From the sequence record OQ939939: a DNA stretch of 64,000 nt, one strand, 5' to 3'. This document shows, piece after piece, positions 8,838 through 57,168 of this stretch; position 1 is the stretch's first letter; every line of letters starts with the position of its first letter. A model generated the notes under the pieces. That model saw only the letters and a list, made by a program, of their open reading frames with translations. It was not told the origin of the DNA and did no database searches. The translations under genes and the position numbers were made by a program. This DNA comes from Escherichia phage SUT_E1620.

Positions 8838-9159
8838 TTTTAGTGAATTAACCCTGCTGGACGAGTTTCTAGGTTTTGTTACTGAACGTGGGTTTATTAA
8901 TGTAGATCCTCAGACACTAGAAGTCTTGCAATCCATCCAGAATAAAACTAAAACAGATCTGGAAGACTTATGGCGACCACTTTCTGAGCTAACTCCTCTT
9001 AATATGAAAGTGATTGTTAAAAATATTGAAACTGGTGAAGAACGTGAGATGGTTCGTAAAGAACTGGCTAATAGTTATTCTCCAGAGTCCCTAGTGATGC
9101 ATCATGACGATGAACCAGAAACACTTTGGACAGCCCATTATATTTGGCGTCTGCCTTGA
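8827..9159 (+). CDS. hypothetical protein
   Basis: 110 aa; overlaps the upstream gene. Confidence 0.35.
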   Translation: MKLNFSELTLLDEFLGFVTERGFINVDPQTLEVLQSIQNKTKTDLEDLWRPLSELTPLNMKVIVKNIETGEEREMVRKELANSYSPESLVMHHDDEPETLWTAHYIWRLP

Positions 9160-9259
9160 TTGATTTAACAACTGTTACGGCAATCCTAATCTTCGGTTTA
9201 GTGGTTGCCGTTTTCATAATCGTTGAGCAGGCCAAAGTAATACGGAGACTTAAAAATAG

Positions 9260-9460
9260 ATGATTAATTTTTATAACCCTAACTTGCAGAAAGCAACGTG
9301 GGATTACTTTATAATTCTACCAGCTTTTATGTTAAGTTGTGCAATCATTAACATTATGTATCAAGAAGCTGGTTGGACAGTCCAAGATTTCCACATTTCA
9401 CAAGTTCTTCCTTTCATGTATGAAGGCGTTATCGCAGCAATAAATGGAGTTCGTAAATGA
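9260..9460 (+). CDS. hypothetical small membrane protein
   Basis: 66 aa; hydrophobic. Confidence 0.3.
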   Translation: MINFYNPNLQKATWDYFIILPAFMLSCAIINIMYQEAGWTVQDFHISQVLPFMYEGVIAAINGVRK

Positions 9461-9924
9461 CAGCACTGCAAAGATTACAGAATTACTGGTTTGATGGCCA
9501 ATTTAATGATTTATTCATCCAGTTGTTTGTCGAAACGAACGGACGTTTTAATTACCGCTTCTTTAATACTTTCCATGAAACGAAGTTCTCGCATACAGAG
9601 ATTAACGCAGCGATTCAAGATCTCACTGGTTCTAAGGTAATTCCTTATCGTGATGTAGATTTTGCACCTGACTGTTTTGGTTTTGAACTGTTTAAGAAAG
9701 CATATAAGTTCGGTAAGTTCGAAGATGCACGACATTGGGTTCATGACTTCTGGTATAATACCGATATCGTCCCTAGCCGTGTACTGATCCTAAACTGGAT
9801 TGCTAAACAACATCCGCCGAAGGCACAATCGGCATTCCTTCCAACTGATACAGGAAATCTTTACCATGACACAAAAGAAAAATCCAGTGCTAGAGCAGAT
9901 GAAGCAGTTGGAGAAGCAGATTGA
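9457..9924 (+). CDS. hypothetical protein
   Basis: 155 aa; ATGA overlap with the upstream ORF. Confidence 0.35.
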   Translation: MTALQRLQNYWFDGQFNDLFIQLFVETNGRFNYRFFNTFHETKFSHTEINAAIQDLTGSKVIPYRDVDFAPDCFGFELFKKAYKFGKFEDARHWVHDFWYNTDIVPSRVLILNWIAKQHPPKAQSAFLPTDTGNLYHDTKEKSSARADEAVGEAD

Positions 9925-10249
9925 GGAAGGAAGCGTTGATGGACAGTCAATTGTCAATCATGCTTTTGATCTTACAGTAGGATGTGCTAATCCGCTGGTG
10001 GCAGGTGAAACAGCAGATATTCTTGGGCTTTTAATGGCAGTTGGCCAGTTAATCGAGATTACCCAAGAAGAGCTAGACAATGATGAAGAAGTAACTGTTC
10101 ATGATGTTCTTGGTGCTCTAGATCTGATTGTTAATGCCTATGCCTATAAACGCCGCCACTCAATTGATGAATATCTAGTTTCTCGTGAGATTACCGAATC
10201 TCTTCTGGAAACTGCTGATATGGCCTTAAACGGCAAGCAACTTCACTAA
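9866..10249 (+). CDS. hypothetical acidic protein (start uncertain)
   Basis: internal ATG at 9866 with AGGAAA SD; overlaps the 3-prime end of the previous ORF. Confidence 0.25.
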   Translation: MTQKKNPVLEQMKQLEKQIEEGSVDGQSIVNHAFDLTVGCANPLVAGETADILGLLMAVGQLIEITQEELDNDEEVTVHDVLGALDLIVNAYAYKRRHSIDEYLVSREITESLLETADMALNGKQLH

Positions 10250-10269
10250 TCCTAGAGGCCAGGACTTAA

Positions 10270-10812
10270 TTGTTCTGCCCTTTCGTGTATACTATGAGAG
10301 ATAAAATAAACGAATTACTTTATGAGGAAGCATTACAATTCCCCATAAATAGATTCACTAAATCAGATGGATCTATTAATAGAACTAAGCTCAAACAACT
10401 TCATCCAGACTTCCAGCAAGATGCACTTAATCTTATCTTTATCAGGAGAGCTGTAGAAGCACATGGTAAGTTCTTTGGATATGAAAGAGTTAAGTATAGA
10501 ACTATGCAACAGCAGGTTGAGATCTATTGCCCAGATCACGATGGTTATTTCTTGCAAACTGCACGGTCTCACTTAGAAGGACATGGTTGCCGATTATGCG
10601 CTCATAAAGTTGTGACACGCTTAACAGAATATGGAGTGTACACCGTACCAGCACCTTTCCACAAATTTGTAGTTGACGGTGAGCATATAATTTGGTATAA
10701 TAAAGATCAAAAGTTAAAACAGGAGTTAAAGAAAGATGGAGTACGTAGTCTGGTCAAACCCATTAGCTTTACTCTCCCACAAACTGTTCAAGACGACGTG
10801 GGGCAGGAATGA
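10270..10812 (+). CDS. hypothetical Cys/His-rich (zinc-binding?) protein
   Basis: CPDHDG...HLEGHGCRLCAH cluster; TTG start, or alternative ATG at 10294. Confidence 0.35.
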   Translation: MFCPFVYTMRDKINELLYEEALQFPINRFTKSDGSINRTKLKQLHPDFQQDALNLIFIRRAVEAHGKFFGYERVKYRTMQQQVEIYCPDHDGYFLQTARSHLEGHGCRLCAHKVVTRLTEYGVYTVPAPFHKFVVDGEHIIWYNKDQKLKQELKKDGVRSLVKPISFTLPQTVQDDVGQE

Positions 10813-11256: not shown

Positions 11257-11441
11257 TGGAAACATTACTTCTTATATTACTAGGCGGTTCACTCTTAACC
11301 ATTCTAGGCTTGATAATTGTGTGCAGTCGCCTCAACGTTAAGAATCTAGAATTAAATAGTGAGAATGAGATTCTTAACCGAGAAATTAAACAACATAATA
11401 TCGCAGCTCATAAGCTGTTAGATAAACTGGAGAATAAATAA
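11256..11441 (+). CDS. hypothetical small membrane protein
   Basis: 61 aa; N-terminal TM; coupled. Confidence 0.3.
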   Translation: METLLLILLGGSLLTILGLIIVCSRLNVKNLELNSENEILNREIKQHNIAAHKLLDKLENK

Positions 11442-12052
11442 TGTTTACACAACAAACCATTAAAGTAGTAGCAGATCATGAACTCGACACATGGAATTAC
11501 AGCTTTAAAGATCTGACTGCTACAGTACAGTTTAAATCTATGCAACTGTCGTTTTTGCACACTGATCTTCAAGGTTGCAAGGAATTTCAGGCTAAGCTCA
11601 TGAATGCTCGTGCTATCTTTGGCACGGCTCGCATCCCGGCGGATAATCTGATTAATGCACTGATCGATGCAGGATACAAACTCGTGAAGACTGAAGTGAA
11701 CCGCCCGAGTACTCCAGTGACTATTCGAGATCCGTGGCAGTCGGGACCAATCGCAATGCTGAATAATTCCGATAAAAGATTAATGTCGGATATGCACAAT
11801 GTTCCTTGTGGTGGCGTGGTAAGCAATACGCAATCATATAAATTTGGGGAAGCATCTAGCGTAGACGAGTGGAATAAAGCTGGCGTTGCAATGATGGGCT
11901 TTGCAAAAGATCGCGGAGCACAAGAAGACTCCGGAGTTTCTAGGAACTCATATACTATCCGTTTTAGCAATCCTAGAAAAGAGGGAGAGCTTGAAGAAAT
12001 GTTAACGAAAGTATTCGAAGCTATTGATGCAGATAAAGCTAGAGGTCGTTAA
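11441..12052 (+). CDS. hypothetical protein
   Basis: 203 aa; coupled start. Confidence 0.35.
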   Translation: MFTQQTIKVVADHELDTWNYSFKDLTATVQFKSMQLSFLHTDLQGCKEFQAKLMNARAIFGTARIPADNLINALIDAGYKLVKTEVNRPSTPVTIRDPWQSGPIAMLNNSDKRLMSDMHNVPCGGVVSNTQSYKFGEASSVDEWNKAGVAMMGFAKDRGAQEDSGVSRNSYTIRFSNPRKEGELEEMLTKVFEAIDADKARGR

Positions 12053-13099: not shown

Positions 13100-13128
13100 T
13101 TGACATTATTTGAGCTGCATGTTATAAT
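13100..13128 (+). promoter_or_regulatory. consensus sigma70 promoter reading into the repeat region
   Basis: perfect TTGACA, 17-bp spacer, perfect TATAAT. Confidence 0.5.
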
Positions 13129-13571: not shown

Positions 13572-14172
13572 TCGGATTTGCACATTATGTTTCTAGAAAT
13601 TTATGGTCGGATTTGCACAAGTGCCTAAGTTTTTAGGAACACATAATCTCCTGAAAATAGCAGCATTATTTCGGGCCGAAGGCCCATGATTGCCTGAGTT
13701 TTTAGAGCCACAGGAATTTTCACTTGTCAAGCTATTTTGCCTCATTTTGCTAATAAAATTTCGCTTTATCTCCCTTAATCTCAATTCTAGCCAAAACATC
13801 CCGCATTATCCCCAAAAATGCAGCAAACCGGTGCTAAAGCACCATCACCGCTGCTCCTTCCGTAGTTCCTCCCAAAAACCTCGTCAGATTCGCACTTCTC
13901 CCCAAACTCACACAATCACACACCTTCTCATCGAAGTAACAAAAATCTTGTCGGTTTTGCACACCTTAACACTTGTCGGATTTGCACATACTCTAGTAAA
14001 TCCAGCTGGATTGCATCGCAGTTGCGGATTGCTGGAGTTTTTAGGAAAATTCATTGTCGGATTTGCACACTACCAAAAATTTTGGGGTCGGATTTGCACA
14101 CTACCAAAAATTGTCGGATTCGCACATACACGCCCGCACGTAACACCCGTGGAGCAATGTCGGATTTGCACA
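13572..14172. repeat. iteron array: 8 or more copies of 13-bp TCGGATTTGCACA
   Basis: copies at 13572, 13607, 13951 (TCGGTTTTGCACA), 13976, 14057, 14088, 14114 (TCGGATTCGCACA), 14160; two copies share extended context GTCGGATTTGCACACTACCAAAAATT. Confidence 0.8.
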
Positions 14173-14176
14173 AAAG

Positions 14177-14196
14177 CGCAGGGCAATTGCCCTGCG
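14177..14196. repeat. perfect 20-bp palindrome CGCAGGGCAATTGCCCTGCG
   Basis: self-complementary by direct reading; sits between the iteron array and the tandem repeats. Confidence 0.7.
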
Positions 14197-14201
14197 ACTT
14201 T

Positions 14202-14369
14202 GAATGATAATGTTTCTCATTTAAGAAGTGGAATGCGAATGATAATGTTTCTCATTTAAGAAGTGAAATGAGAACTATTCAAAAAGTGAAATGATTCTCA
14301 TTTAAGAAAGGAAATGATTATCAGTTAGACAGTGGAATGCGAATGATAATGATTCTCATTTAAGAATGG
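14202..14369. repeat. four tandem about 35-bp direct repeats (GAATGATAATGTTTCTCATTTAAGAAGTG family)
   Basis: units at about 14202, 14237, 14288 and 14341; related copies near 14700, 18110 and 23770. Confidence 0.7.
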
Positions 14370-14393
14370 AAGTGAGAAACACTGTTATTTAAG

Positions 14394-14502
14394 TTATCCA
14401 CAGACTTATTAACAGCACGATTTGATTTGACAGAATCCTAGCCATTTTGAGGCGTTATTAACAGACTTATCCACAGCTTATCCTACTGTATAAATATACA
14501 GT
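14394..14502. repeat. left arm of about 110-bp imperfect inverted repeat with two DnaA boxes
   Basis: TTATCCACA at 14394 and 14467; palindrome CTGTATAAATATACAG; reverse complement aligns to 17989-18096 at roughly 80 percent identity. Confidence 0.7.
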
Positions 14503-14759
14503 ATTCCTATGTAGTGAATAATTCTAATATAGGCCTAAAACGTCCTGAATCGCATTCTAACGCGTTTAATTTTGATGGAGATACTAAAACAAGGGCAAAA
14601 TTGGAGGAGGCTTAAAAATTAGTTAGCTTGCTAACGATCACACAAGGCGACACGTAACACCTTAATCATTAGCAGGCTAACCATCGCGGGCGCGGTTAAA
14701 TGAGAATCACTCTCATTTGAGAATTGGGGGCACTCCCTGGTAGTTGCGCCCCGTTATTA

Positions 14760-14954
14760 TTAGTCTGGTAGTCGATGCGTGATCTTTTCCTCCTCCCCGT
14801 AGGAATCCACCAAATGCTGATAATAACCATCGGCATCATAAATAACGCTATCATATTCGCCACGCTCGACCGCTTGCCGATTCTCCGGCGTATCGGGCAC
14901 GTAAAAAACATCAACCATTGTACTGATTTTGGTTACAACAATTTTATTGCTCAT
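14760..14954 (-). CDS. hypothetical acidic protein (cassette gene)
   Basis: ATG at 14954 with AGGGG SD (the track ORF extends to a TTG at 14984); last gene of the minus-strand operon. Confidence 0.35.
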   Translation of the reverse strand: MSNKIVVTKISTMVDVFYVPDTPENRQAVERGEYDSVIYDADGYYQHLVDSYGEEEKITHRLPD

Positions 14955-15054
14955 AATAACCCCTAGTAAATATATTTTTGCCAATAGTGGCGAACGTTAT
15001 CGCCACCAGCGGAATCATTTGCAGCCTCAACATTACCCGCGAAAATATATAATC

Positions 15055-15399
15055 TCATTGCGCCACCTTTCGAAACGCTGTTTCAATACTATCCGCAGTG
15101 GATTGAATATACGCGCCTTTCATTATCAGGCGCTCGGTGCATATCTTGCGAAAAATATTAATAAAATCATCTTCATTTTCTGCAATTAATGCTTCACCCA
15201 TAACCTGAACGTCACAAGATGCAAAGGTCAAAAATTGAAACGCTAGTTCACGGGCAACGACCGCATTGATTTTATAATGCGCCTTGCCCTCATAAATATT
15301 AATAACGCCCTTATAAGCTGGTGAAAGCTGATTCAAATAGTTTGCTAGTAATGCCGGACGGCAATTAGCAACAAAACGATTGCCTTCATAAATAACCAT
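15055..15399 (-). CDS. hypothetical protein (cassette gene)
   Basis: ATG at 15399 lies 1 nt after the upstream stop (the track ORF extends to a TTG at 15438). Confidence 0.4.
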   Translation of the reverse strand: MVIYEGNRFVANCRPALLANYLNQLSPAYKGVINIYEGKAHYKINAVVARELAFQFLTFASCDVQVMGEALIAENEDDFINIFRKICTERLIMKGAYIQSTADSIETAFRKVAQ

Positions 15400-15400
15400 T

Positions 15401-15613
15401 TTATAACACCCCACGAAACGCAGCGTAAAAGGTGGCAAAGTGTTTAACCGTTTCAGCGATCACGTTGCCGCGCTTGTCGAATTTTTTCTCAGTAACACGG
15501 AAGGCGTTTTTATTTCGCGCTACATATTCAATTTTACAATCTTCCCGCTCGAACGTGTTAACGTCCACCAGCTTAAAGCCTTTTGAACGTGCAAGGGAAA
15601 CGTTACGAATCAT
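15401..15613 (-). CDS. hypothetical basic protein (cassette gene)
   Basis: 70 aa; SD AAGGAG; tightly packed. Confidence 0.4.
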   Translation of the reverse strand: MIRNVSLARSKGFKLVDVNTFEREDCKIEYVARNKNAFRVTEKKFDKRGNVIAETVKHFATFYAAFRGVL

Positions 15614-15615
15614 TT

Positions 15616-15765
15616 TTATTCTCCTTTACTAGTCATGCAGCCCAGCAGATAAGAAAATACAGCGATACCCGCACCAATAATAACCGCGTGAACGTCGAAA
15701 GCTATTGCAAACAAAGATAAAATAGCGCCCAAGATACCCGCCAGAATAGCTCGAAAAATAACCAT
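15616..15765 (-). CDS. small hydrophobic membrane peptide (about 49 aa)
   Basis: hand-translated MVIFRAILAGILGAILSLFAIAFDVHAVIIGAGIAVFSYLLGCMTSKGE; SD AGGAGG; not in the ORF track because it is under 60 aa. Confidence 0.35.
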   Translation of the reverse strand: MVIFRAILAGILGAILSLFAIAFDVHAVIIGAGIAVFSYLLGCMTSKGE

Positions 15766-15814
15766 TTGTGATAGCCTCCTAGTTATCGGGGGATATAATA
15801 TCCCCCGTTACTAA

Positions 15815-16045
15815 TTACATTAAAACAATTTTTGCAGCTTGTTTTTTGGTGCAATGTTCCGCCTTCAGGGTATCCAGCAAAAAGCCAGCCGTTTGCTGAT
15901 CGATTTTATCGGCGTTATATAGTTCCTGAATGGTATTATAGGTTTTAGCAATACCGAACTCCTGCACCATTTCATAGATGACAGCACGATTAGACACCCA
16001 GCCTTGAGCGGTGAACAGATGACTAGCAGAAGAATAAGCAACCAT
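15815..16045 (-). CDS. hypothetical protein (cassette gene)
   Basis: ATG at 16045 preceded by GGAGG (the track ORF extends to a TTG at 16078). Confidence 0.4.
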   Translation of the reverse strand: MVAYSSASHLFTAQGWVSNRAVIYEMVQEFGIAKTYNTIQELYNADKIDQQTAGFLLDTLKAEHCTKKQAAKIVLM

Positions 16046-16108
16046 TTTAAGCCTCCAAATTTTTGGGAAAATTTTCAACCGTCCTTAAACGGTGTAAAGG
16101 CATTATAA

Positions 16109-16138
16109 CAAAAAAGGCCACCAATTATGGCGACCTTT
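16109..16138 (-). terminator. possible rho-independent terminator (minus strand)
   Basis: imperfect hairpin AAAGGTCGCC...GGTGGCCTTT followed by U-run in the minus-strand transcript, between the 164-aa gene and the downstream genes. Confidence 0.3.
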
Positions 16139-16151
16139 ACAAAACTTTACA

Positions 16152-16646
16152 TTAAACTACTTGTAATGTTTCAATATTGAAACATCGTTTCAATTCGTCA
16201 TGCAAAACAGCGTATTCATCCCATCGGGTACTATCAGGGATATAAACAAGCTGTTTTAGTCGGTTTGCGTATATTACCGCTTTGTTACCAACTATCTCGA
16301 CGCCGCCATATTTAATAATTAATTTCATGACGGAATTAATAGGATCGCCGCCGTTTACATATGTGCCGGATTTACTTAATTGATAATGATAAAGGCTTGC
16401 ATATACATTATCATTCTCATACCATTCGCCAGTATCCTCGTCTTCATAGCCATCGCTACCAAAACGAGAAGCATTATCAATAGCCATTTCATGAGCGAAA
16501 GCGTCCAGATCCGTACCAGCAGGAACAAAGTATTCCTCGGTATTCCCCTCGCCGCAATAGCCAGTATGGCAATCGACTAAAATGATCATATCATGTTTAG
16601 CCGTGCTCACTTCCCCTAGCGAGAAGCCGTATTTTTCCTCAGCCAT
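16152..16646 (-). CDS. highly acidic protein of unknown function
   Basis: 164 aa; about 28 Asp/Glu against 12 Lys/Arg, concentrated in the N-terminal 80 residues; SD AGGAGG. Confidence 0.5.
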   Translation of the reverse strand: MAEEKYGFSLGEVSTAKHDMIILVDCHTGYCGEGNTEEYFVPAGTDLDAFAHEMAIDNASRFGSDGYEDEDTGEWYENDNVYASLYHYQLSKSGTYVNGGDPINSVMKLIIKYGGVEIVGNKAVIYANRLKQLVYIPDSTRWDEYAVLHDELKRCFNIETLQVV

Positions 16647-16711
16647 TAGTTAGCCTCCTATTAATTAACAAGGGAATAGTAAAGCGGGGTAACAATCCCC
16701 GCTTAATATTA

Positions 16712-17722
16712 TTACTCGCTTTCGGTGTTAGTGGTAAAAGTAGAAATATCGATACCTTTTACCATTTCATCAATCATTTCAGCGATGTTAAAACTTTGCA
16801 CCATTTCCAGCATTGCCGCTTCCATAGCCGCCCCTGCTACCGCTTTCGCCTTTTGGTTATTTGGGGCGTACTGGTCAACCGCTACACTCAGCAGGTTAGC
16901 AATCACTACTCGACCAATAGGCGTATCGATATAACCTTTGATCATGAATGGTGCTTTTTTAGCCGCTACTTTCGTAATTTGAGTTAATGCAATTTTACCC
17001 GCTTCCAGTTTTGCAGCATTTACAACAGCGGATTTATTGGCGGCAACGATATTGGCGATCTTGGTCATGGTATTTTTTCCTTTGTTTTCAGTGATTTGAG
17101 TATTAACGCTTTGAGTGTTAGAATTTACAGCATGTTTTTCCGTGCTGTCAATGATCTGATTCTCATCTTTCCAGAAAATAAAACCCGCTTCATGTACTAG
17201 TTCATTATATATATACGGGTATAATTTCGATGGTAATAAAAAATTACCGTCGCCATCAAAAGCCATTACCGCCGTATATTGAGATCCATCACTATCAGGC
17301 CTATGCCATCCAGCAGATAAATACTTCCAGATAACATCTAAAAACCCCTCAAGGCTAGAAAGTCCGTTTATTAAATCAAGCCCAATAAGCTCAAAATTAT
17401 TTATATTAAATGATTGACGGCCTGAATTGCTATGATACGCAACAATATTATTACCCTGCGCAATAATAAAATCGGTATCCGGCCCCGCTCCCTTGCCTGT
17501 AAAGATATGGCAATCACGATTATATAAGATAATCGTTGCCCCCTGCTTATATAAGGGTAGAAAACTATCCATATCATAGGCATCATAATCATCAAAAAAG
17601 TTTTGGTGAATAGTTTCAGCCTTGTTAATAAAATGTTTAATGCTGGTTGTTCTGCTACCATCCAGCAGGTTACGCAGCGCACCTTTTAAGACGGTTGCGT
17701 TATCTGGTTTATATAGCCTCAT
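16712..17722 (-). CDS. two-domain protein of unknown function
   Basis: 336 aa; SD GGGAGG; N-terminal about 190-aa domain, polar linker, Ala/Val-rich amphipathic C-terminal domain. Confidence 0.5.
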   Translation of the reverse strand: MRLYKPDNATVLKGALRNLLDGSRTTSIKHFINKAETIHQNFFDDYDAYDMDSFLPLYKQGATIILYNRDCHIFTGKGAGPDTDFIIAQGNNIVAYHSNSGRQSFNINNFELIGLDLINGLSSLEGFLDVIWKYLSAGWHRPDSDGSQYTAVMAFDGDGNFLLPSKLYPYIYNELVHEAGFIFWKDENQIIDSTEKHAVNSNTQSVNTQITENKGKNTMTKIANIVAANKSAVVNAAKLEAGKIALTQITKVAAKKAPFMIKGYIDTPIGRVVIANLLSVAVDQYAPNNQKAKAVAGAAMEAAMLEMVQSFNIAEMIDEMVKGIDISTFTTNTESE

Positions 17723-17988
17723 TTGTTGGCCTCCCTCGTTAATCGGTGAGTGAATGATAAAGGCAATTTTCTAGCATAGGCAAATATTATTTTACCTTTT
17801 TATTTTCCTTGCCTAGCGCCTAGTTTTATGCTAACCGCGCAGCGGTACAGTAAAGAGCAAAACACGGTGAAGCCACCAGGGCGACGGGTGAAGGCTTTAC
17901 TTTAATATTACCCCACCGCATTTAGCTCGTTAGAAAGCGTTTTAGGCCGCTTAAAATTGATTGCAGTTGTTAACACTACCCATTTACC

Positions 17989-18096
17989 CTGTATATTTAT
18001 ACAGTAGGATAACATGTGGATAAGTCTGTGGATAAGTCCTTATATCGCCGCCTATCGTGTCAAATCATTTTGTGCTGTTAATAACATTGTGGATAA
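17989..18096. repeat. right arm of inverted repeat with three DnaA boxes
   Basis: TGTGGATAA at 18015, 18027 and 18088; palindrome CTGTATATTTATACAG; inverted copy of 14394-14502. Confidence 0.7.
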
Positions 18097-18936
18097 CTTA
18101 AATGATAGTGGTTCTCACTTAGGACGATAGTTTCTTATAGTTATTATTTCTATCGGTTACGATTTCTTATAATTATTATTTCTCATTAATTTATAAGTAT
18201 ATTATATATCATGAAATAGTTAGTTGGCTAATGAGATTTTCCGTGATTAATAGTCTGCTAATAGTTCCGGCTGTTACAATCCACCAGCATGATTATCATC
18301 CTAGCAACTATTAGTCTGCTATCTTTCCGATGCATACTAACAAATAAAAGTCAATTAATTTATTTCATAAAATAAGTAGTTATCCACTGGAAAATAAAAG
18401 TCAAGTGGATAACTAGGAAAATTTCATTTTTGCTTTTGGGGATAAGTTATCAACAAGGCTAGAATGCGCCTAAAACGCCCTAGAACGCGATGAAAGTTTT
18501 AGCCATGCCATTGCATTGCCTACCCTCGTTTATCGCTACCACGAGCTTTTTAGTTTTTGTCAAGTAGGGCAAGGCAAATATAAATGAAAAAATTACTTGC
18601 CAACCTGCTGGGTTTTATGGTATTCGCGCGCCCGTTTCCTTTAATTTTAGTGCGCCGCGCCCAGGTCGCCGCACGGTGTCCGGTGGCATTTTGTCTTTAC
18701 GTTTCTTTACAAAAATAAGGTTGCGCCATTTTTACTATTTGCTATTATTTATCTCGTAGGGAGGCAATGACGAACTACACGGCGGGAAGTTTACCGCCAC
18801 GCTCTTTAAAAATTGGGTATATCTTAAAGCCTATCGGCGGTAAACTTATTCATTATAAGGAATCGACGATATGAAACAGACGCTTTTGATCACTGGCAAG
18901 CCTAGCAAGGCACTAGATAGCAAAACAAAAAACTTG

Positions 18937-18964
18937 TTGACAGTAGCGCAAAGATCGGTAAAAT
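18937..18964 (+). promoter_or_regulatory. consensus sigma70 promoter
   Basis: TTGACA, 16-bp spacer, TAAAAT. Confidence 0.5.
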
Positions 18965-19070
18965 ACCGATTCACGCAGTACAAGAAAGGTCGCCAGCAAG
19001 GTTTAGAAATGATCTGGAGAAATATTATGATTGACCTGAAAGAAAATCATAAAAAACTGCAAAAAATTGT

Positions 19071-19099
19071 TTGACAACCTAGCCGATAGGCTTTAAGAT
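19071..19099 (+). promoter_or_regulatory. consensus sigma70 promoter
   Basis: TTGACA, 17-bp spacer, TAAGAT; about 200-nt leader before the ATG at 19301. Confidence 0.5.
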
Positions 19100-19226
19100 G
19101 TACCCAGTTCGATAAGAGCGATAACTTGATAAAATTTGACGGTCGGTGCTTACCATAATGCGCCCCGCCCCCTAACGGGATATAGCGGCCTACGTGGAGT
19201 TCTTTAAATTGATTAAACTGGCGAGC

Positions 19227-19277
19227 GGATTGTTACTTATTACCTGCTACTTTCTAGCAGGTAATGCGGAACAATCC
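19227..19277 (+). promoter_or_regulatory. long two-tier hairpin in the 5-prime leader
   Basis: GGATTGTT/AACAATCC outer stem enclosing TACCTGCTA-CTTTC-TAGCAGGTA inner stem, just upstream of the SD. Confidence 0.4.
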
Positions 19278-19300
19278 ATCAAATAACTGGAGTTTATATT

Positions 19301-19552
19301 ATGCAAAACGTTATTACCGCGCCTAAAATTGGTCAATCTGTTTTTATTCCTTTCGTTACTAAAACGGACGAATTAACCGGAAAAGCCGAACGTATTAAAG
19401 GCGCGGCGCTTATGCCTTTCGATACAATCGACGCGGTATACGCTGAAAATGAACGTAGTAACAACGGCAAGCCTGTTTTTAACGTTCGCGTTAAATCCGG
19501 CGACGTTGTAAAGATCATTCAGAAGGATGATAAATGGCAAGCCATAGCATAA
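19301..19552 (+). CDS. hypothetical protein
   Basis: 83 aa; SD CTGGAG. Confidence 0.4.
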   Translation: MQNVITAPKIGQSVFIPFVTKTDELTGKAERIKGAALMPFDTIDAVYAENERSNNGKPVFNVRVKSGDVVKIIQKDDKWQAIA

Positions 19553-19652
19553 ATTAGTGTTACTTTTATATTCCCCTGAAATATGGGGAATATATGGATT
19601 AACATTAGTTAATCATAATCCCTTAATTAATAATTGAATGGAGTATTAAATT

Positions 19653-20069
19653 ATGTCTAACGTTAAAACCGAAAAAACCGCAAAATTCTCTTGGAACGAA
19701 GAAAACACCGAAAAGGCTGTTTCTATGTATTCTGAAATGGTCGCTAAAAGCGGGATTGAGTTTGCGAATAGTGACGGCTTAAAAGAAATTGCCGCCGCCG
19801 TTGGCGCTGCTAGTCCGGTGTCTGTACGTTCTAAACTGACAAGCGCAAAAGCGTACCAGAAAAGCGATAAACCGCGTAAAGTTGGCGGCGGGTCTAGTGT
19901 CCGTAAAGCTCACTATGTGCGCGTCATTGCTAAACATGCCATTGATAGCGGCATTGTAAAAGACGCTGACGATCTGGCAAGTCTGGAAAGTGCAAAACTG
20001 GAAACGCTGGACGCCGTAGCTCAATTGTTAGGCGTAGCGGAGGAAGTAAAACAGGCCGCAGGTGAATAA
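19653..20069 (+). CDS. hypothetical protein
   Basis: 138 aa; SD TGGAG. Confidence 0.4.
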   Translation: MSNVKTEKTAKFSWNEENTEKAVSMYSEMVAKSGIEFANSDGLKEIAAAVGAASPVSVRSKLTSAKAYQKSDKPRKVGGGSSVRKAHYVRVIAKHAIDSGIVKDADDLASLESAKLETLDAVAQLLGVAEEVKQAAGE

Positions 20070-20127
20070 ATTTTAATTAGCGGGGAATATTCCCCGCTAT
20101 AATTTCCCTTTGACCGGAGTTATTAAA

Positions 20128-20355
20128 ATGATTTTCTTCCCTAGTGAAGCGTTTATTTTAGGTTTATTTATAGTTGCCGCTATGTTTATATTTAATTACG
20201 GCAAATATATAATCTCTATTATCGGCATTAATTCAGCTTATGCCGCTGATATGTTTAAACGTCAAGCTAATAAACAAAAATATCTGGCGATTATATTTTT
20301 AACGCTGGCTATTAGTTGCGGGTTTAGTTCTAGTCTTATGCCAATTCTAGAATAA
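20128..20355 (+). CDS. small membrane protein
   Basis: ATG at 20128 with GGAG SD (the track ORF starts at a TTG at 20110); two hydrophobic helices. Confidence 0.35.
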   Translation: MIFFPSEAFILGLFIVAAMFIFNYGKYIISIIGINSAYAADMFKRQANKQKYLAIIFLTLAISCGFSSSLMPILE

Positions 20356-20463
20356 TATTGCAAATTATAACGCCTTTTAAATTGTCCTCACTTCAGGCAA
20401 GGCGTTATATTTGGCAATATTGCCAGTATTAATATTTATCCCTTTATAGGAGTTGATTTAGTT

Positions 20464-22134
20464 ATGAATATTTCCGCAGAAAAACAAGCTCAAATTTTGA
20501 AAATGGCCGCTGATTTTAATTTCTATGGTAAGCGTTTACGCGCTACTAAATTGGAAGTTTGCGACGATATTTCAAAAGCTGTTTATGATACGCCGAAACA
20601 TTCGACCGCAATTTGTGACTGGCTGGAAGCAAATAAGCCAGCGAAACCGAAAGCGGCAAAAGCTGAAAAGGCGATTAAAAATGATGATCGCCCCGAAGCG
20701 GCGGGAATTGTTTCTAGTACCGTTGAACAATGGGAAGTTAAATCCGGTCGCCGTTTTATTCTAACGTCGATTCAAAATAATACTTTCCCGCATAAAAACT
20801 TTTTAGCAAGTCTGGAAAAATTCGCTGAATATTGCGGCGCTGAATTGCTGATTAGTAAATTCATTTATAATAAAAATGGATTCCAGAACGGGGAAGGGGC
20901 AAACGGTATTAAATACGATCCCGCATTTGATAAATATGTTTGTGATAAAAACGTATTTTTAAATAACCGCCGCTTTGCTTTCATGGCTGAAATTAATGTT
21001 TTACCAACGGCAGATTATCCGCTTTCAGGATTCGCAGAAACCGCCACGGCTTTAAATATCGAAGGTCTGGCAATTGGTCACGCAAAAATTACCGCTGAAA
21101 GTGTTCCCGCGCTTAAAGGTGAAGTAGTGCGCCGTATGTATTCAACCGGAACGGCAACGCTCAAAAACTACATTCAGCAGAAAGCCGGACAAAAGGCCGA
21201 GGCGCTGCATAATTTCGGTGCGCTTATTGTCGAGTTCGACGAAGACGGTGAGTTTTTTGTTCGCCAGCTTGAAACGATGGATGAAAGCGGGGTATTTTAT
21301 GATCTGAATGTTTGTGCTACTCCCGCCGGATGCTATGAAACAACGGGACACGTTTTAGGTTTACAATATGGTGACATCCACGCTGAAAAATTAGATGAAG
21401 AATGCGCCGCTGCATCTTGGGGGCATGGCGACACCTACGGGCTTGTGGATATTCTTAAACCAAAATATCAATTCGTACACGACGTGCATGATTTTACATC
21501 ACGCAACCATCACAACCGCGCATCCGGTGTATTCCTAGCAAAACAATACGCCGCCGGACGTGATAAAGTTATTGATGATCTTATCGATACGGGGCGCGTG
21601 CTGGAATCAATGGAACGTGATTTCTCGCAAACAATCATTGTTGAATCTAATCACGATTTGGCGCTATCCCGTTGGCTTGATGATCGTAATGCTAACATTA
21701 AAGACGATCCAGCAAACGCGGAACTATATCACCGCCTAAATGCCGCGATTTATGGAGCTATTGCAGAAAAAGACGATACTTTCAACGTGCTAGATTATGC
21801 GCTGCGCAAGGTTGCAGGTTGTGAGTTTAACGCCATTTTTCTAACTACTGACCAATCTTTCAAGATTGCAGGCATTGAATGCGGCGTACACGGTCACAAC
21901 GGCATTAACGGCAGCCGTGGCAATCCTAAACAGTTTAAGAAATTGGGCAAGCTAAACACGGGACACACCCATACCGCTAGCATTTACGGTGGCGTTTATA
22001 CCGCTGGCGTAGCTGGTAGTCTGGATATGGGTTACAACGTTGGCGCGTCAAGCTGGACGCAAACGCATTTAATTACCTATGCAAACGGTCAGCGCACTTT
22101 GATTGACTTTAAAAACGGTAAATTTTTCGCGTAA
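20464..22134 (+). CDS. A1: A1-like pre-early metallophosphatase
   Basis: 556 aa, the size I recall for T5 A1; phosphoesterase motifs YGDIHAE, HGDTYG, RNHHN, GVHGHNG, GHTHT; SD TAGGAG. Confidence 0.65.
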   Translation: MNISAEKQAQILKMAADFNFYGKRLRATKLEVCDDISKAVYDTPKHSTAICDWLEANKPAKPKAAKAEKAIKNDDRPEAAGIVSSTVEQWEVKSGRRFILTSIQNNTFPHKNFLASLEKFAEYCGAELLISKFIYNKNGFQNGEGANGIKYDPAFDKYVCDKNVFLNNRRFAFMAEINVLPTADYPLSGFAETATALNIEGLAIGHAKITAESVPALKGEVVRRMYSTGTATLKNYIQQKAGQKAEALHNFGALIVEFDEDGEFFVRQLETMDESGVFYDLNVCATPAGCYETTGHVLGLQYGDIHAEKLDEECAAASWGHGDTYGLVDILKPKYQFVHDVHDFTSRNHHNRASGVFLAKQYAAGRDKVIDDLIDTGRVLESMERDFSQTIIVESNHDLALSRWLDDRNANIKDDPANAELYHRLNAAIYGAIAEKDDTFNVLDYALRKVAGCEFNAIFLTTDQSFKIAGIECGVHGHNGINGSRGNPKQFKKLGKLNTGHTHTASIYGGVYTAGVAGSLDMGYNVGASSWTQTHLITYANGQRTLIDFKNGKFFA

Positions 22135-22187
22135 TTAAATTATCCCCTAGCGGCTTGAAATATAGCCGCTATTACAGGAGTCAAAAA

Positions 22188-22445
22188 ATGAAAGTTACAT
22201 TACCCAAAACATTGGACGAAAAAGCATTCATCTCACCGGATGAAATGGAATCCGATAAAGTTTACAGCTTTGGGCCTATCCTAGCCGCCAAAACTAATAC
22301 GGATGGCATTATTTCCATCGATTATCGTGATAATGATGTTGTTCCTTTTGATGATGATGGCGCTTTTTATGAGTGGCTAAGCGATAATAATTTACCCGTA
22401 AACGGTGAATTAACGCCGTACCAGATGCAGATTATTATCAAATAA
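22188..22445 (+). CDS. hypothetical acidic protein
   Basis: ATG at 22188 with CAGGAG SD (the track ORF starts at a TTG at 22155). Confidence 0.35.
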   Translation: MKVTLPKTLDEKAFISPDEMESDKVYSFGPILAAKTNTDGIISIDYRDNDVVPFDDDGAFYEWLSDNNLPVNGELTPYQMQIIIK

Positions 22446-22484
22446 ATTAAATCCCTATATTAAACTAATTGGAGTTTTATAAGT

Positions 22485-22877
22485 ATGAAAAAGCAAAATA
22501 TTCCATTCGATCGCGCTCAGTCTTCCATTGTTCTGGTTTATTCTAATGGTGAACGTTACCACGTCGAGGCGGGGCACGTTATTGATGAATTATTAGATTT
22601 CAATGACGCTTTACAGGTTACTACCTTTGCCTATACGCAAGGCAAACTAACCAGCCATATTAAAGCAAAAGGCGTTTATGTTGACACGATGAAACAAGAA
22701 ACAATCATTATTGACGCGGTAAAATCTGGTCTAGCCTTTGCAGTTGTCGCGCCTTGCCCCGCTTGCCTTGATGATCAGCTAGCGAGCGCAAAGGTATACA
22801 CCTGCGCGGGGATTCGTTCTAGCGTATCCGGTGAGGATGTTAGTTTTATCGCTGATGCGTTGGCTTATGGTCTTTAA
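22485..22877 (+). CDS. hypothetical protein (A2-like by position and size only)
   Basis: 130 aa; SD TTGGAG; lies between the A1-like and dmp-like genes. Confidence 0.3.
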   Translation: MKKQNIPFDRAQSSIVLVYSNGERYHVEAGHVIDELLDFNDALQVTTFAYTQGKLTSHIKAKGVYVDTMKQETIIIDAVKSGLAFAVVAPCPACLDDQLASAKVYTCAGIRSSVSGEDVSFIADALAYGL

Positions 22878-22956
22878 TAGTTGATTTATTATTACCCGCT
22901 TATAAATAGCGGGTAATGCTGAATTAATCTAATCCCTTAAATGGAGAACGTAACAA

Positions 22957-23691
22957 ATGAATAAAGCTATTATGAATATTTCCCGCAGCTTCCCGCATAT
23001 TTCCCGCGTCATGATTTGGGATTTAGACGGCACTATCGTTAATTCTTTCCATCGTGTAGCGCCTTGCTTTGATAGTGAGGGCAATTTAGATTTAAATAAG
23101 TATAAAAATGAAGCGTGTAAACATCATTTAATAATGCAAGATACTTTATTGCCATTGGTTGAATATATGCGCCAGTGCATGAATGACGCAAATACTTTAA
23201 ACATTATTTGCACCGCTCGACTGATGAGTAAGTCGGACTATTATTTCTTGCGCAAACAAGGCTTGCGCGGTCGTGGTAATAGTAATATCCGCGTATTTTC
23301 CCGCGACACACTGCATAAATATTTTAAAGCTGATAAGGTTAGCGAAATATACCACAGCAAAGACGCAGTATATAAATCTTATTATTTTGAATTATTTAAA
23401 CAGTTATATCCGAACGCTGATTTTACAATGATTGATGATCATAAAGGCGTACTATCAGCGGCGGCATCATACGGATTTAAAACGCTGGACGCCCAAGCCG
23501 TTAATGATATTCTATCAATCGGCGTGGCATTAATAGGTGAAACCTTTATTGATGAATCTCTCGACGATGATAATGATTATCAATTCCTAGCCGATCGTTT
23601 GAAATTATGTTGGGAAGGTATGACCGAAGAAGAACGCGCAGAATATAGTACCACACCGCAACAATTCATTGATAAATTAAAAGTTGCCTAA
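22957..23691 (+). CDS. dmp: HAD-family 5-prime-deoxyribonucleotidase (dmp-like)
   Basis: 244 aa; HAD motif I WDLDGTIVNS; SD ATGGAG; size matches my recollection of T5 dmp. Confidence 0.6.
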   Translation: MNKAIMNISRSFPHISRVMIWDLDGTIVNSFHRVAPCFDSEGNLDLNKYKNEACKHHLIMQDTLLPLVEYMRQCMNDANTLNIICTARLMSKSDYYFLRKQGLRGRGNSNIRVFSRDTLHKYFKADKVSEIYHSKDAVYKSYYFELFKQLYPNADFTMIDDHKGVLSAAASYGFKTLDAQAVNDILSIGVALIGETFIDESLDDDNDYQFLADRLKLCWEGMTEEERAEYSTTPQQFIDKLKVA

Positions 23692-23854
23692 CAATTAAAA
23701 ATAAAATAGTCACACTGTGTAATGATAACATGGTGTGACTATTAGCTTGCTAAGTAAGGGGGCGGTAATGAGACTCATTCTCATCTAGGGAACCTCTGGG
23801 CACACCTTCATGTGTAATCTTATGAGATTTCGAGAATTGGTAATTAGCGCTAAC

Positions 23855-26807: not shown

Positions 26808-27290
26808 ATGGCAAATGATGTATTAGTTCCCGATCTCATGTCTCCCGAAGGCATGGATGTTATTGAAGCCTATTTACAATGCGGTAGTGATGTTCCTGCC
26901 GCTGCTCGTAGTCTTGGGATGTCCGAGATTGCATTCCGTGATATAATGAATCGTGGGGAAGTTAAAAACTATCTTAACGATATCTTTATGGAAAGCGGCT
27001 TCCGTAATCGTGACCGTTTGTTTGGGGTTCTTGATGAAGTTATCAAGCGTAAGCTAGAAGAACTTGAAGAAACTGGCATGGGTTCTGACCAGGATATCAT
27101 GGATATTCTCTGGAAGGCGCACAAGATGAAAATGGAAGAAATGAAAATGATGGTAGAACTGGAGAAAGTGAAGGCAGCAGCCCGTACTCCGGCTAACCAG
27201 ACTAACATTCAGAATAATATTATTGCTGGAAGTGGTGACGAAAACTATATGAATCTTATTACCGCTCTAGCAGGAGGAGGTAAGAGATAA
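26808..27290 (+). CDS. terminase small subunit
   Basis: 160 aa; N-terminal HTH-like segment; immediately upstream of the large subunit. Confidence 0.5.
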
Positions 27291-28606
27291 TGAAAGTCTC
27301 TAGAGACTATATTAACACCACAGATGTTATTGACTTTGGTATTGACAAACGATTCTTTCGTCTACCAGTCTCTAGCATCCTAGCACAAGAGGGGATTACA
27401 CCTAATGCCCCTCAGATTGCAATCATTAATGCGCTGGAAGACCCAAGACACCGTTTCGTAACTGCATGTGTATCACGTCGTGTAGGTAAGTCGTTCATCG
27501 CATATACTCTTGGGTTTCTGAAGCTTCTGGAGCCTAATGTAAAGGTGCTAGTAGTAGCACCTAACTATTCACTGGCTAACATCGGTTGGTCACAGATTCG
27601 TGGTCTTATTAAGAAGTATGGATTACAGACTGAACGTGAGAACGCCAAAGATAAAGAGATTGAACTAGCGAATGGTTCTCTCTTTAAGCTGGCTTCTGCA
27701 GCGCAGGCTGACTCCGCGGTTGGTCGTTCGTATGACTTCATCATCTTTGACGAAGCAGCGATTTCCGATGTTGGTGGTGCAGCTTTCGATATTCAGTTAC
27801 GTCCTACCCTAGATAAGCCAAACTCTAAAGCTCTGTTTATTTCCACACCTCGTGGTGGTAACTGGTTCAAAGAGTTCTATGAGAAAGGATTTAATGAGAC
27901 GCTGCCTAACTGGGTATCTATTCATGGTACATATCGTGATAACCCACGTGCTGATCTGAACGATATCGAAGAAGCGCGTCGTACAGTTAGTAAAAACTAC
28001 TTTCGTCAGGAATATGAGGCTGACTTCTCTGTATTCGAAGGTCAGATCTTTGATACCTTTAATGCTATAGACCATGTTAAAGACCTTAAAGGTATGCGTC
28101 ACTTCTTTAAAGATGATGAAGCATTCGAAACGTTGCTTGGTATTGACGTTGGTTATCGTGATCCTACAGCAGTTCTTACTATTAAGTACCACTATGATAC
28201 AGATACCTACTATGTATTAGAAGAGTACCAGCAGGCGGAGAAAACCACAGCTCAGCATGCGGCTTACATTCAGCACTGTATAGATCGTTATAAAGTTGAT
28301 CGTGTTTTTGTTGACTCTGCCGCAGCTCAGTTCCGTCAGGACTTAGCTTATGAACATGAAATTGCATCGGCTCCAGCTAAAAAATCTGTCCTAGATGGAT
28401 TAGCATGTTTACAAGCACTATTCCAACAAGGCAAGATTATTGTGGATGCTTCATGTTCCTCATTAATTCACGCATTGCAGAATTACAAGTGGGATTTCCA
28501 AGAAGGTGAAGAAAAATTATCACGTGAAAAACCACGTCATGATGCTAACTCTCACCTCTGTGATGCTCTGCGCTATGGAATTTACTCTATTTCCCGTGGT
28601 AAATAA
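27290..28606 (+). CDS. terL: terminase large subunit
   Basis: 438 aa; Walker A-like RRVGKS; Walker B DFIIFDEAA; C-terminal nuclease-like domain. Confidence 0.85.
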   Translation: MKVSRDYINTTDVIDFGIDKRFFRLPVSSILAQEGITPNAPQIAIINALEDPRHRFVTACVSRRVGKSFIAYTLGFLKLLEPNVKVLVVAPNYSLANIGWSQIRGLIKKYGLQTERENAKDKEIELANGSLFKLASAAQADSAVGRSYDFIIFDEAAISDVGGAAFDIQLRPTLDKPNSKALFISTPRGGNWFKEFYEKGFNETLPNWVSIHGTYRDNPRADLNDIEEARRTVSKNYFRQEYEADFSVFEGQIFDTFNAIDHVKDLKGMRHFFKDDEAFETLLGIDVGYRDPTAVLTIKYHYDTDTYYVLEEYQQAEKTTAQHAAYIQHCIDRYKVDRVFVDSAAAQFRQDLAYEHEIASAPAKKSVLDGLACLQALFQQGKIIVDASCSSLIHALQNYKWDFQEGEEKLSREKPRHDANSHLCDALRYGIYSISRGK

Positions 28607-28720
28607 ATAAGTATAGGAAGGGATACTACTCAGTTGGTATCCCATTCCTGCATTTTAAAATCCCCTTTACAAATTCGATACGATTATGTATACTATATTC
28701 ATACAGTTGAGGAGAACACT

Positions 28721-55329: not shown

Positions 55330-57168
55330 TTATTCTAAGTAGGAAAATCCTTCTGCATCTTTTTTAACAGTAATCTTATGGGCTAATGGATGCGTATGCC
55401 CATGAGAAACAATGATAGAATTCAGACTATCTTCCTCATTTAATAATTCAACGAGAGTATCAAGTCCTTTCGTATCAATAAAGCTAATAACTTCGTCAAG
55501 GAACAGAAGATTAATATTAACTTTACTAATAGATGTTAACAGCATTCGAATAGCTAACAGAGTTGCTAGGTTAATTCTACTCTGCTGACCAGTAGAGCAG
55601 TTCTCCATACTGGTACGGTTTCCATCATTGAAGATTACTACTTGTAATTTAGTTTCATCAAGCTCAAATCCAAGTGCGAACTTACCACCAGTCATAATAG
55701 AAAGATATTTATTAATCAATTCCTCAAATACTTTCACACTATGTTCTAGTTTATATCCTACCAGATTTTTCAATGCAGCAATCAGAATATCAAGATCAGC
55801 AACAGCTTCTGATACTCCATCCAGTTTGGACGTTATCTCAGACATTTCTGCCTCAGCTTTTTCAATCTGTTCTAGTTTCGCTTTATACTTTGCATTGGCT
55901 AACTCGACATTTGCATTATGCTCTTTGGCAATTGCAACTTTAGAACGTCCATCAGCGATTTCCTGTTCTAATTGTCGGATTTGCACCTGTAGGATTTGCA
56001 CATTGAGTTCTTCAAAAGAAGCGTCACTCATTGAATTTTTGAACTCGTCTCTAGCTGCTACTGCCTTATCCAAAGCATCCTTAGCTCTAGTATACGCAGT
56101 GTACTCGACTTGTTCTTTCTTCAACTGCTCCAATGTAGCTTCAAGAGATTGTTTCTCTTTGAACAGAGGATCGTATTCTGTTCTAGCCATATCCATTGCT
56201 TTTTGAGCAGCAGTTGTATCAAGATGCGTACCACAAGTAGGACATTCAGTATTTGAAGCCTCTTGCTTAAACTTCTGATAACGTTTCTTGACTTCTCCCG
56301 CACGTGAGGTAACAATCGTTAAGTCACGCGTAACACTTGAGATCTCTTCAGATTGGTCAGTGGGCGCAGGGAAATTTTTGAAAGGCTCGAAAGATTGTTC
56401 GGCAACTTGTACAGCTTTGTCCAAATTACGGAGTTTAGTAATATTAGCCTCTTGTGACTTGGCTAATGCCGCCTTAATTTTCGATTCAGTAAGTTCTTGT
56501 GCTAACGGTTCTTCATCAAATTCTGGAACTTCAACTGGCTCCTGTAAACTTCCGAGATTACCTTTTCCATTGAGGATCTTCGTAATTACGGCCATCTGGC
56601 CTTGCAAGTTACTTAACGTACTTGCCACTTCTTTACGATCAGCCTTAATAGTTTCTGACATCTCTTTATACTGTTCCTGATTGAACAGATTAACAAGAAA
56701 AGCTTTACGTGTTGCATCAGTTGCTTTGAGGAAGTCTAGATTGGAACCAACAGATTGATAGATTAGTTTAGTGAATGTTTGGAAGTCACCACCCATAATC
56801 TCTTCAATCATCTTGTACGTTTGAGTTGCTGTGTGTCCACTGATATCTTCTCCATTCTTAATCAGTGTAACCTTAGCAGTTGATTTAACTACTTTATGCA
56901 ATTCATACTCATCTTCATCTTTCGAGAAGTAAGCATGCATATCATACTCTTTCTTCGGAGAACCCCAAGAGAATAGGGCGTCCTTCTTGATACCACGTGA
57001 GTTCTTGTTATAAAACAATTCCTCAATAACAGTAGCAATAGTGGACTTCCCTAGACCGTTTCCTCCGATTAACTGAGTAACTGGATTCTTATCGAAATGA
57101 ATTACGATATCCTTACCGTAAGACATAACGTTGCTGAATTTTAGTGTCTTAATTATAATCTTTGACAT
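55330..57168 (-). CDS. SbcC/Rad50-like recombination ATPase
   Basis: ATG at 57168 (the track ORF extends to 57243); Walker A GGNGLGKST; central coiled coil; C-terminal LLFLDE. Confidence 0.7.
   Translation of the reverse strand: MSKIIIKTLKFSNVMSYGKDIVIHFDKNPVTQLIGGNGLGKSTIATVIEELFYNKNSRGIKKDALFSWGSPKKEYDMHAYFSKDEDEYELHKVVKSTAKVTLIKNGEDISGHTATQTYKMIEEIMGGDFQTFTKLIYQSVGSNLDFLKATDATRKAFLVNLFNQEQYKEMSETIKADRKEVASTLSNLQGQMAVITKILNGKGNLGSLQEPVEVPEFDEEPLAQELTESKIKAALAKSQEANITKLRNLDKAVQVAEQSFEPFKNFPAPTDQSEEISSVTRDLTIVTSRAGEVKKRYQKFKQEASNTECPTCGTHLDTTAAQKAMDMARTEYDPLFKEKQSLEATLEQLKKEQVEYTAYTRAKDALDKAVAARDEFKNSMSDASFEELNVQILQVQIRQLEQEIADGRSKVAIAKEHNANVELANAKYKAKLEQIEKAEAEMSEITSKLDGVSEAVADLDILIAALKNLVGYKLEHSVKVFEELINKYLSIMTGGKFALGFELDETKLQVVIFNDGNRTSMENCSTGQQSRINLATLLAIRMLLTSISKVNINLLFLDEVISFIDTKGLDTLVELLNEEDSLNSIIVSHGHTHPLAHKITVKKDAEGFSYLE

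Follow-up and report, generated by a model that had tools for sequence, protein, structure and literature searches.

What a long array of short direct repeats marks in a phage genome, and which protein reads it, is the question raised by a locus of Escherichia phage SUT_E1620. In the window, i.e. the whole 64-kb stretch of DNA that was analysed, the 13-mer TCGGATTTGCACA is present in 8 copies between 13572 and 14172, exclusively on the + strand. Six of these are exact (13572, 13607, 13976, 14057, 14088 and 14160) and two carry one mismatch (TCGGTTTTGCACA at 13951 and TCGGATTCGCACA at 14114), which bears out the count of at least eight copies given in the preliminary description. At a threshold of ≤2 mismatches the entire window holds 13 matches to the 13-mer, whereas its dinucleotide-preserving shuffles (n = 100) hold 1.56 ± 1.25 with a maximum of 7, and 13 or more matches were seen in 0 of 100 shuffles. 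The array is real and highly non-random. A repeat search of the window shows that the unit exceeds 13 bp and is rather of ~15 bp, (T)GTCGGATTTGCACA, and the consensus over 88 copies from 10 phages is T-R-TCGGATTTGCAC-A-T, in which the first T is never preceded by C or T. Newly described here is the bipartite layout of the array, which is made of an outer pair (13572..13619, with copies at 13572-13584 and 13607-13619), a gap of ~340 bp and an inner cluster of six 13-mers (13951..14172, with copies starting at 13951, 13976, 14057, 14088, 14114 and 14160). A ninth and degenerate copy (TCAGATTCGCACT, 3 mismatches) is found at 13885-13897, in the gap between the two sub-arrays (13705..13950, + strand).

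An ORF of 189 aa (13690-14259) runs over the array. It is interrupted by in-frame stop codons in 28 of 28 aligned relatives and has no PHROG match, and the spacings between the window copies (35, 344, 25, 81, 31, 26 and 46) are not multiples of three. On these comparisons it is taken to be a chance ORF and the array to be non-coding, as had been supposed beforehand, and a coding repeat was rejected given that the ORF is neither conserved nor matched to any family. Three further copies, each with one mismatch and on the + strand, lie away from the array. The first, TCGGATATGCACA at 11786..11798, falls within a 203-aa ORF (11441-12052), and the two others form an adjacent pair (55975/55990, spanning 55975..56002) antisense within the D13 (SbcC-like) gene, where the opposite strand encodes VQILQVQIRQ, that is a VQIL/VQIR peptide repeat. 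No pair was found at the D13 position in the Klebsiella, Pantoea and Vibrio relatives, and this outlying pair was consequently rejected as a conserved functional site. A similar pair with a 15-bp spacing is seen in Pantoea phage AAS21, ~100 codons from the position of the D13 pair, and none in the Klebsiella and Vibrio relatives.

The region of the array matches 455 phage records at 80-95% identity, all of them T5-like, in agreement with the preliminary assignment of the genome, while a database search found no plasmid relatives of the region. Relative to the conventional T5 map, the window + strand is reverse-complemented. The T5 record AY587007 carries the identical 13-mer under the name "direct repeat D" (DRD), with copies 1-9 at 9672-10409, and the nine annotated copies all differ from the window 13-mer by 0-1 mismatch, the unit on the T5 top strand being TGTGCAAATCCGA. 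By this match the window array is the array of T5 DRD copies 1-9, and because DRD is already annotated in T5, it is counted here as a known feature, in other words a rediscovery. The outer pair is equivalent to T5 DRD copies 8 and 7, the inner cluster to copies 6 to 1, the outlying copy at 11786 to copy 10 and the D13 pair to copies 12 and 11.

The 13-mer and the order of the copies are the same in both genomes, and the T5 spacings read in the opposite direction are 46, 26, 31, 81, 25, 344, 35 and 137, against 35, 344, 25, 81, 31, 26 and 46 in the window. The neighbours also follow in the same order: first palindrome J, which goes with nick 1, then the DRC/DRE repeats, and finally inverted repeats D' and C', in which the DnaA boxes lie. 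T5 has nine good copies and the window eight, with no match at the position of T5 copy 9, whereas the window, unlike T5, has one extra degenerate copy in the gap. In T5 as in the window the array is located in a large non-coding region with the pre-early genes on one side and the first early genes on the other, across the right end of the terminal repeat. This location, together with the T5 record AY543070, in which 9140-10149 is labelled 'injection stop signal (iss)' and spans the inner cluster, agrees in position with the earlier suggestion that the array could be the injection-stop locus of the first-step-transfer DNA. Davison (bioRxiv 10.1101/866236) counts "nine DRD repeats" among the three main repeat classes of Repeat Region 3 and gives no function for them. 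The 13-mer sequence itself was not found in the text of the literature searched. What is added here to the known DRD is that its link to the genome terminus is conserved and that the motif is distributed in a phage-specific manner; the preliminary description had overlooked the DRD annotation, the straddling of the terminal-repeat boundary by the array and the small terminase as a candidate reader.

Also new here is where the 10-kb terminal repeat stops: its right boundary, the physical right end of the virion DNA, is located at a conserved sequence within the gap of the array. The T5 terminal repeat ends at 10139, so that DRD copies 1-6 are inside and copies 7-9 outside. All available genomes with both repeat copies or an annotated terminus were checked, and the boundary lies between the sub-arrays in T5, BF23, Sw2, phiR2-01, two further T5-like contigs, IME260, My1 and AG74. 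The pattern holds across four Demerecviridae lineages, a Vibrio phage among them. The nearest outer copy is found 85 nt beyond the boundary in T5, BF23 and Sw2, 84 and 85 nt beyond it in the two further T5-like contigs, 119 nt in phiR2-01, 117 nt in Klebsiella phage IME260 (Sugarlandvirus) and 245 nt in Pectobacterium phage My1 (Mccorquodalevirinae), and Vibrio phage AG74 (Ermolyevavirinae) shows about five copies on each side. The sole exception is chee24, whose boundary is off by ~207 bp; its boundary sequence is unlike all others and the annotation is therefore treated as imprecise. These phages are related, and the agreement between boundary and array is in part inherited, so that the nine cases should not be counted as independent. 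In T5 orientation the boundary reads ...TTGACAAGTGAAAATTCCTGTGGCTC/TAAAAACTCAGG... (the slash marking the boundary), which is identical in T5, BF23, Sw2, phiR2-01 and the two further T5-like contigs, and related and recognisable in IME260 and My1. By homology to T5, the equivalent position in the window would be 13704/13705. The homology to the T5 boundaries at both ends likewise suggests that 13705..23802 is a single (collapsed) terminal repeat of ~10.1 kb with the pre-early genes, in which case the inner cluster and the gap at 13705..13950 are within the repeat, and the outer pair is outside it and ends 85 nt from the boundary.

The conservation of the region was followed in an alignment of 29 relatives that are 69-85% identical to the window. 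The block at 13650..13760, around the inferred boundary, is near-invariant and the most invariant part of the region. Furthermore, the DRD columns are more conserved than the spacer columns, with a majority fraction of 0.94 vs 0.86 (Mann-Whitney p = 1e-7) and 61% vs 36% of invariant columns. Among 10 phages the orientation is uniform within each array for 88 of 88 copies and a gap of 266-611 bp is present in every array. Around the position of the genome end, the outer cluster holds 1-5 copies and the inner one 4-7, all in a single orientation. In the T5-like phages a GC-rich hairpin, GGGCC-GAA-GGCCC, is located ~20-35 nt outside the boundary (13673-13685 in the window, within the near-invariant block). 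A hairpin of different sequence, CACGGTG-ACA-CACCGTG, is found at a similar position in Klebsiella phage IME260 (~10275-10295 of its sequence), and in Vibrio phage AG74 the boundary is inside a 13-nt inverted repeat (CCAAAAATTGGCC / GGCCAATTTTTGG). In addition, the + strand of the gap at 13705-13950, just inside the genome end, is C-rich and G-poor with a GC skew of -0.4 to -0.6.

The DnaA boxes, palindrome and tandem repeats that had been noticed beside the array are real. The equivalent of T5 major nick 1 (7.9%) is found at 14137..14196 on the + strand and consists of CACGTAACACC (14137-14147), a spacer containing DRD copy 1 and A/GCGCAGG (14175-14182), and it is overlapped by the palindrome at 14177-14196, which is terminator-like on the - strand. 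The T5 nick consensus is R/GCGCRGG (PMC3517423). In 4 of 4 unique T5 major nick sites we observed a second motif, AC(G/A)(C/T)GTAA(T/C)..., ~31 nt upstream of this consensus, and the window displays the same succession, the second motif at 14137-14147 being followed by AGCGCAGG at 14175-14182. Another CACGTAACACC is present at 14651-14661 with GGCGCGG 32 nt past its GTAA core (region 14651-14695) and may represent an extra nick site. In T5, nick 1 abuts DRD1 and DRD11/12 are 362 bp from nick 4. As a nick determinant, DRD was nevertheless rejected, given that nicks 2 and 3 are without DRD and that all four nicks share the different upstream motif.

Beyond the nick, at 14200..14503, are other elements known from T5: the DRC/DRE repeats (14200-14380), the DnaA boxes (14394-14402 and 14467-14475) and a LexA-box-like palindrome (14484-14503). 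The DRC/DRE repeats (GAATGATAATGWTTCTCATTT; 14200-14380 and 14696-14727) agree with the 19-bp Fur box in 14-15 of its 19 positions, a 16/19 match to this box is found at 23563-23587 near the left end of the terminal repeat, and in the Vibrio relative the place of the DRC/DRE repeats is taken by unrelated tandem repeats. The palindrome TACTGTATAAATATACAGTA at 14484-14503 (19/20) and CCCTGTATATTTATACAGTA at 17987-18006 (17/20) are near-consensus LexA (SOS) boxes, and each is located beside a cluster of consensus DnaA boxes (14394 and 14467 for the former; 18015, 18027 and 18088 for the latter). The former corresponds to T5 'palindrome D', which is not termed a LexA site in the Davison text consulted. 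A similar pairing of CTGTATATTTATACAG with the DnaA box TTATCCACA is also seen in Vibrio phage AG74 (~11770-11880).

We then considered which protein could read the repeats. A search for the 13-mer across related phages showed that the motif is kept from the T5-like phages to Vibrio, the core TCGGATTTGCAC being present in phages of Escherichia, Salmonella, Yersinia, Klebsiella, Pantoea, Pectobacterium and Vibrio. An Aeromonas phage relative exhibits a variant motif (TCGAATTTCTACT and TCGRAWAAGTACT), while a Proteus phage relative is without the motif and has a different tandem repeat instead. As this distribution does not track host relatedness, a phage-encoded reader that changes with the motif is favoured, and the reader of the 13-mers is, on this pattern, probably encoded by the phage. 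A link to the pre-early proteins A1/A2, of which A2 is encoded at 19653-20069, was considered and was weakened for A1, which the motif does not follow. The identity of A1 falls to 32% among the phages that keep the core, AG74 being a phage with A1 at 32% identity and the motif retained, and in metagenomic contigs outside the T5-like group (A1 at 36-48% identity) the motif was not found within the 10-kb flanks around A1, which argues against such a link.

The candidate small terminase (160 aa, 26808..27290, + strand; phrog_3802, E = 2e-90) is encoded directly upstream of the large terminase (27290-28606), 12.6 kb from the array, and its position makes it a candidate reader of the repeats. The alignment of small terminases gave no support for this role: the putative helix-turn-helix (residues ~26-50) is the most variable part among the motif-bearing phages and differs between the window and AG74 despite the same DNA motif, and the small terminase of the motif-lacking Proteus phage is no more divergent at this element. 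Covariation with the motif is hence unsupported for the small terminase, which may nevertheless be the reader. In two older records the gene at 26808-27290 is labelled 'putative sciB' (M62847) or 'SciB protein' (AKFV33), sciB being one of two loci reported to control the single-strand nicks of T5; if the small terminase is sciB, nicking would be tied to the packaging enzyme. Between the large terminase and the portal we also observed an HNH-motif ORF of 174 aa (28634-29158, + strand), where T5.154 and T5.153 are found in T5, and its product may be either a homing endonuclease or an HNH protein associated with packaging.

Our main reading, to which we would give a probability of about 40%, is that the 13-mers are polar binding sites of a phage-encoded protein and that, together with the near-invariant sequence of the gap, they would mark the right boundary of the terminal repeat, i.e. 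the site where the genome end is cut and packaging starts. A late phage protein, with the small terminase as the obvious candidate, would bind in a single orientation to both the outer pair and the inner cluster. The large terminase would then cut in the gap at the conserved ...TGTGGCTC/TAAAAAC..., where the position of the end is observed and the enzyme is presumed, and translocation would begin at the cut end, with the inner cluster passing first and then the terminal repeat, in the direction of the genes for terminase, head and tail. In T5 the left end is the first to be injected, and on a last-in-first-out basis the right end would be packaged first; moreover, the usual siphovirus polarity runs from cos or pac to terminase to head genes. 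In window orientation the array and cut site come first, followed by the terminal repeat, the small terminase, the large terminase and the portal, and it is from last-in-first-out and this gene order that the direction of translocation is inferred. The same array could, more speculatively, also add to the pause of DNA entry, since the whole site persists uncut in the left terminal repeat, ~10 kb from the leading end. Against packaging stand the copies away from the terminus (11786 and 55975/55990) and published work that assigns the region of the array to the injection-stop locus. Furthermore, according to one paper T5 DNA is packed starting from its left end (PMC3517423); if this is correct, the site would serve termination and not initiation.

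The assignment to injection leads to the main rival, a plausible, if tentative, alternative in which the array is part of the injection-stop/restart signal and a host or virion protein (for the stop) or pre-early A1/A2 (for the restart) acts on the oriented repeats at ~8% of the genome while the left terminal repeat is entering. DRD1 of T5 starts at 9672, ~50 bp beyond the estimated shear point of the first-step transfer at ~9618, the iss feature of AY543070 includes the inner cluster, and the region has been described as a stop signal as late as 2026. The orientation and conservation of the repeats would suit a directional process, and A1 and A2 are present in all motif-bearing phages. However, for the stop signal Davison (bioRxiv 10.1101/866236) prefers the inverted repeats with the DnaA boxes, together with the DRE repeats, both of which lie to the side of the shear point that has already entered, and gives DRD no role; in window coordinates these published candidates are right of the array and are not DRD itself. 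The stop also occurs without new protein synthesis, which excludes a phage-encoded cytoplasmic reader for the stop itself, whereas a host reader fits the Vibrio/Proteus/Aeromonas pattern of the motif poorly. In vitro, ejection runs to completion. Moreover, a role in the injection stop leaves unexplained why the genome end is inside the array and at a conserved sequence. The two roles are not mutually exclusive.

Other explanations are considered much less likely. The preliminary description had proposed an iteron-controlled origin or a protein-loading site; conserved and oriented sites, presumably bound by a protein, agree with the latter, while an origin finds little in its favour and we consider an iteron-type origin or replication-protein loading site with the nearby DnaA boxes highly improbable. 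At least eight direct repeats do adjoin consensus DnaA boxes, T5 does have a protein annotated 'replication origin binding protein' (obp), and the variant repeat GGATTCGCACA resembles the herpesvirus UL9 box GTTCGCAC. Yet no initiator gene adjoins the array, which is flanked by a 241-aa protein (phrog_8993, no assigned function) and small pre-early ORFs, and the T5 'obp', ~50 kb from the array, matches the herpes family over helicase residues 389-533 (profile positions 46-197 of 820) and not over the DNA-binding domain, so that a UL9-like origin-binding protein has no support as reader. No clear AT-rich unwinding element is seen beside the repeats, the gap being of 33-52% GC, gap and array together of 33-53%, and the sole stretch at ≤30% GC being the DRC/DRE block (14200-14399), and Davison 2020 cites a mapping of the T5 origins near the genome centre. 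The repeats themselves could instead be weak DnaA boxes (ATTTGCACA vs TTWTNCACA) or sites of another conserved host factor. They are one mismatch off the relaxed DnaA consensus, the copy at 13951 is a perfect TTTTGCACA and consensus boxes are 220 bp away. Nevertheless, that copy is the only one to fit TTWTNCACA, no DnaA box includes the invariant TCGG, My1 has T and AG74 has C in place of the last A of the box, and the motif is present in Vibrio phages and absent in a Proteus phage. On such motif comparisons the repeats are not DnaA boxes, and a host-factor site of this kind has a minimal chance of being correct. There is finally a slim chance that the repeats are a roadblock to transcription or motifs of a non-coding RNA. 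A consensus sigma-70 promoter (TTGACA, 17 nt, TATAAT; 12/12 with TG) at 13100..13128 on the + strand, from which such an RNA would be made, lies in unique DNA and is directed into the non-coding region, through the array and over the genome terminus. Every repeat is on the transcribed sense strand, and the array is between convergent transcription units. This promoter follows directly after the last early ORF, and promoter-like sequences were also seen by eye in T5 and Vibrio phage AG74. Against such a role, the region has no Rfam match and no compensating changes are seen in the small TGT...ACA stem, where 24 of 88 copies have A at position 0 but the C that would pair with it never varies; a structured RNA was rejected on both counts, and neither RNA nor roadblock accounts for the link to the genome end.

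Returning to packaging, it is possible, although doubtful to us in this extended form, that the DRD array and the invariant gap sequence are the long-sought packaging or terminus-recognition site of T5-like phages and that the same oriented complex, or a structure left behind by it, sets the pause of DNA entry. If true, the length of the terminal repeat, the formation of the genome end and the two-step injection would all hang on one cis element. How T5 DNA entry stops and restarts and how the 10-kb terminal repeats are made are questions that are ~50 years old. Annotation of the array dates back to the sequencing of the T5 genome, and its link to the genome end together with the motif distribution offers a defined object for mutagenesis and binding assays, experiments that are within reach now that the T5 genome can be edited.

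Two kinds of known systems offer a comparison. Iteron origins such as those of pSC101, P1 oriR and lambda ori share with the window direct repeats in the same orientation near DnaA boxes. Unlike them, the window has no adjacent initiator gene and no clear unwinding element, and its repeats are irregularly spaced, with a 344-bp gap, and located at the genome terminus. SPP1 pacL-pacC-pacR, P1 pac, where hexamer repeats flank the cleavage site, and the R sites of lambda cosB are terminase recognition sites with repeats. In contrast to these, the window site is a 10-kb terminal repeat away from the terminase genes, its array is longer (~600 bp), the genome has long exact terminal repeats and not cohesive or headful ends, and small-terminase binding is without support from the alignment. 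As in SPP1, P1 and lambda, short repeated elements in the window flank the position of the mature DNA end, and the arrangement is directional and upstream of the terminase and head genes in what would be the direction of packaging.
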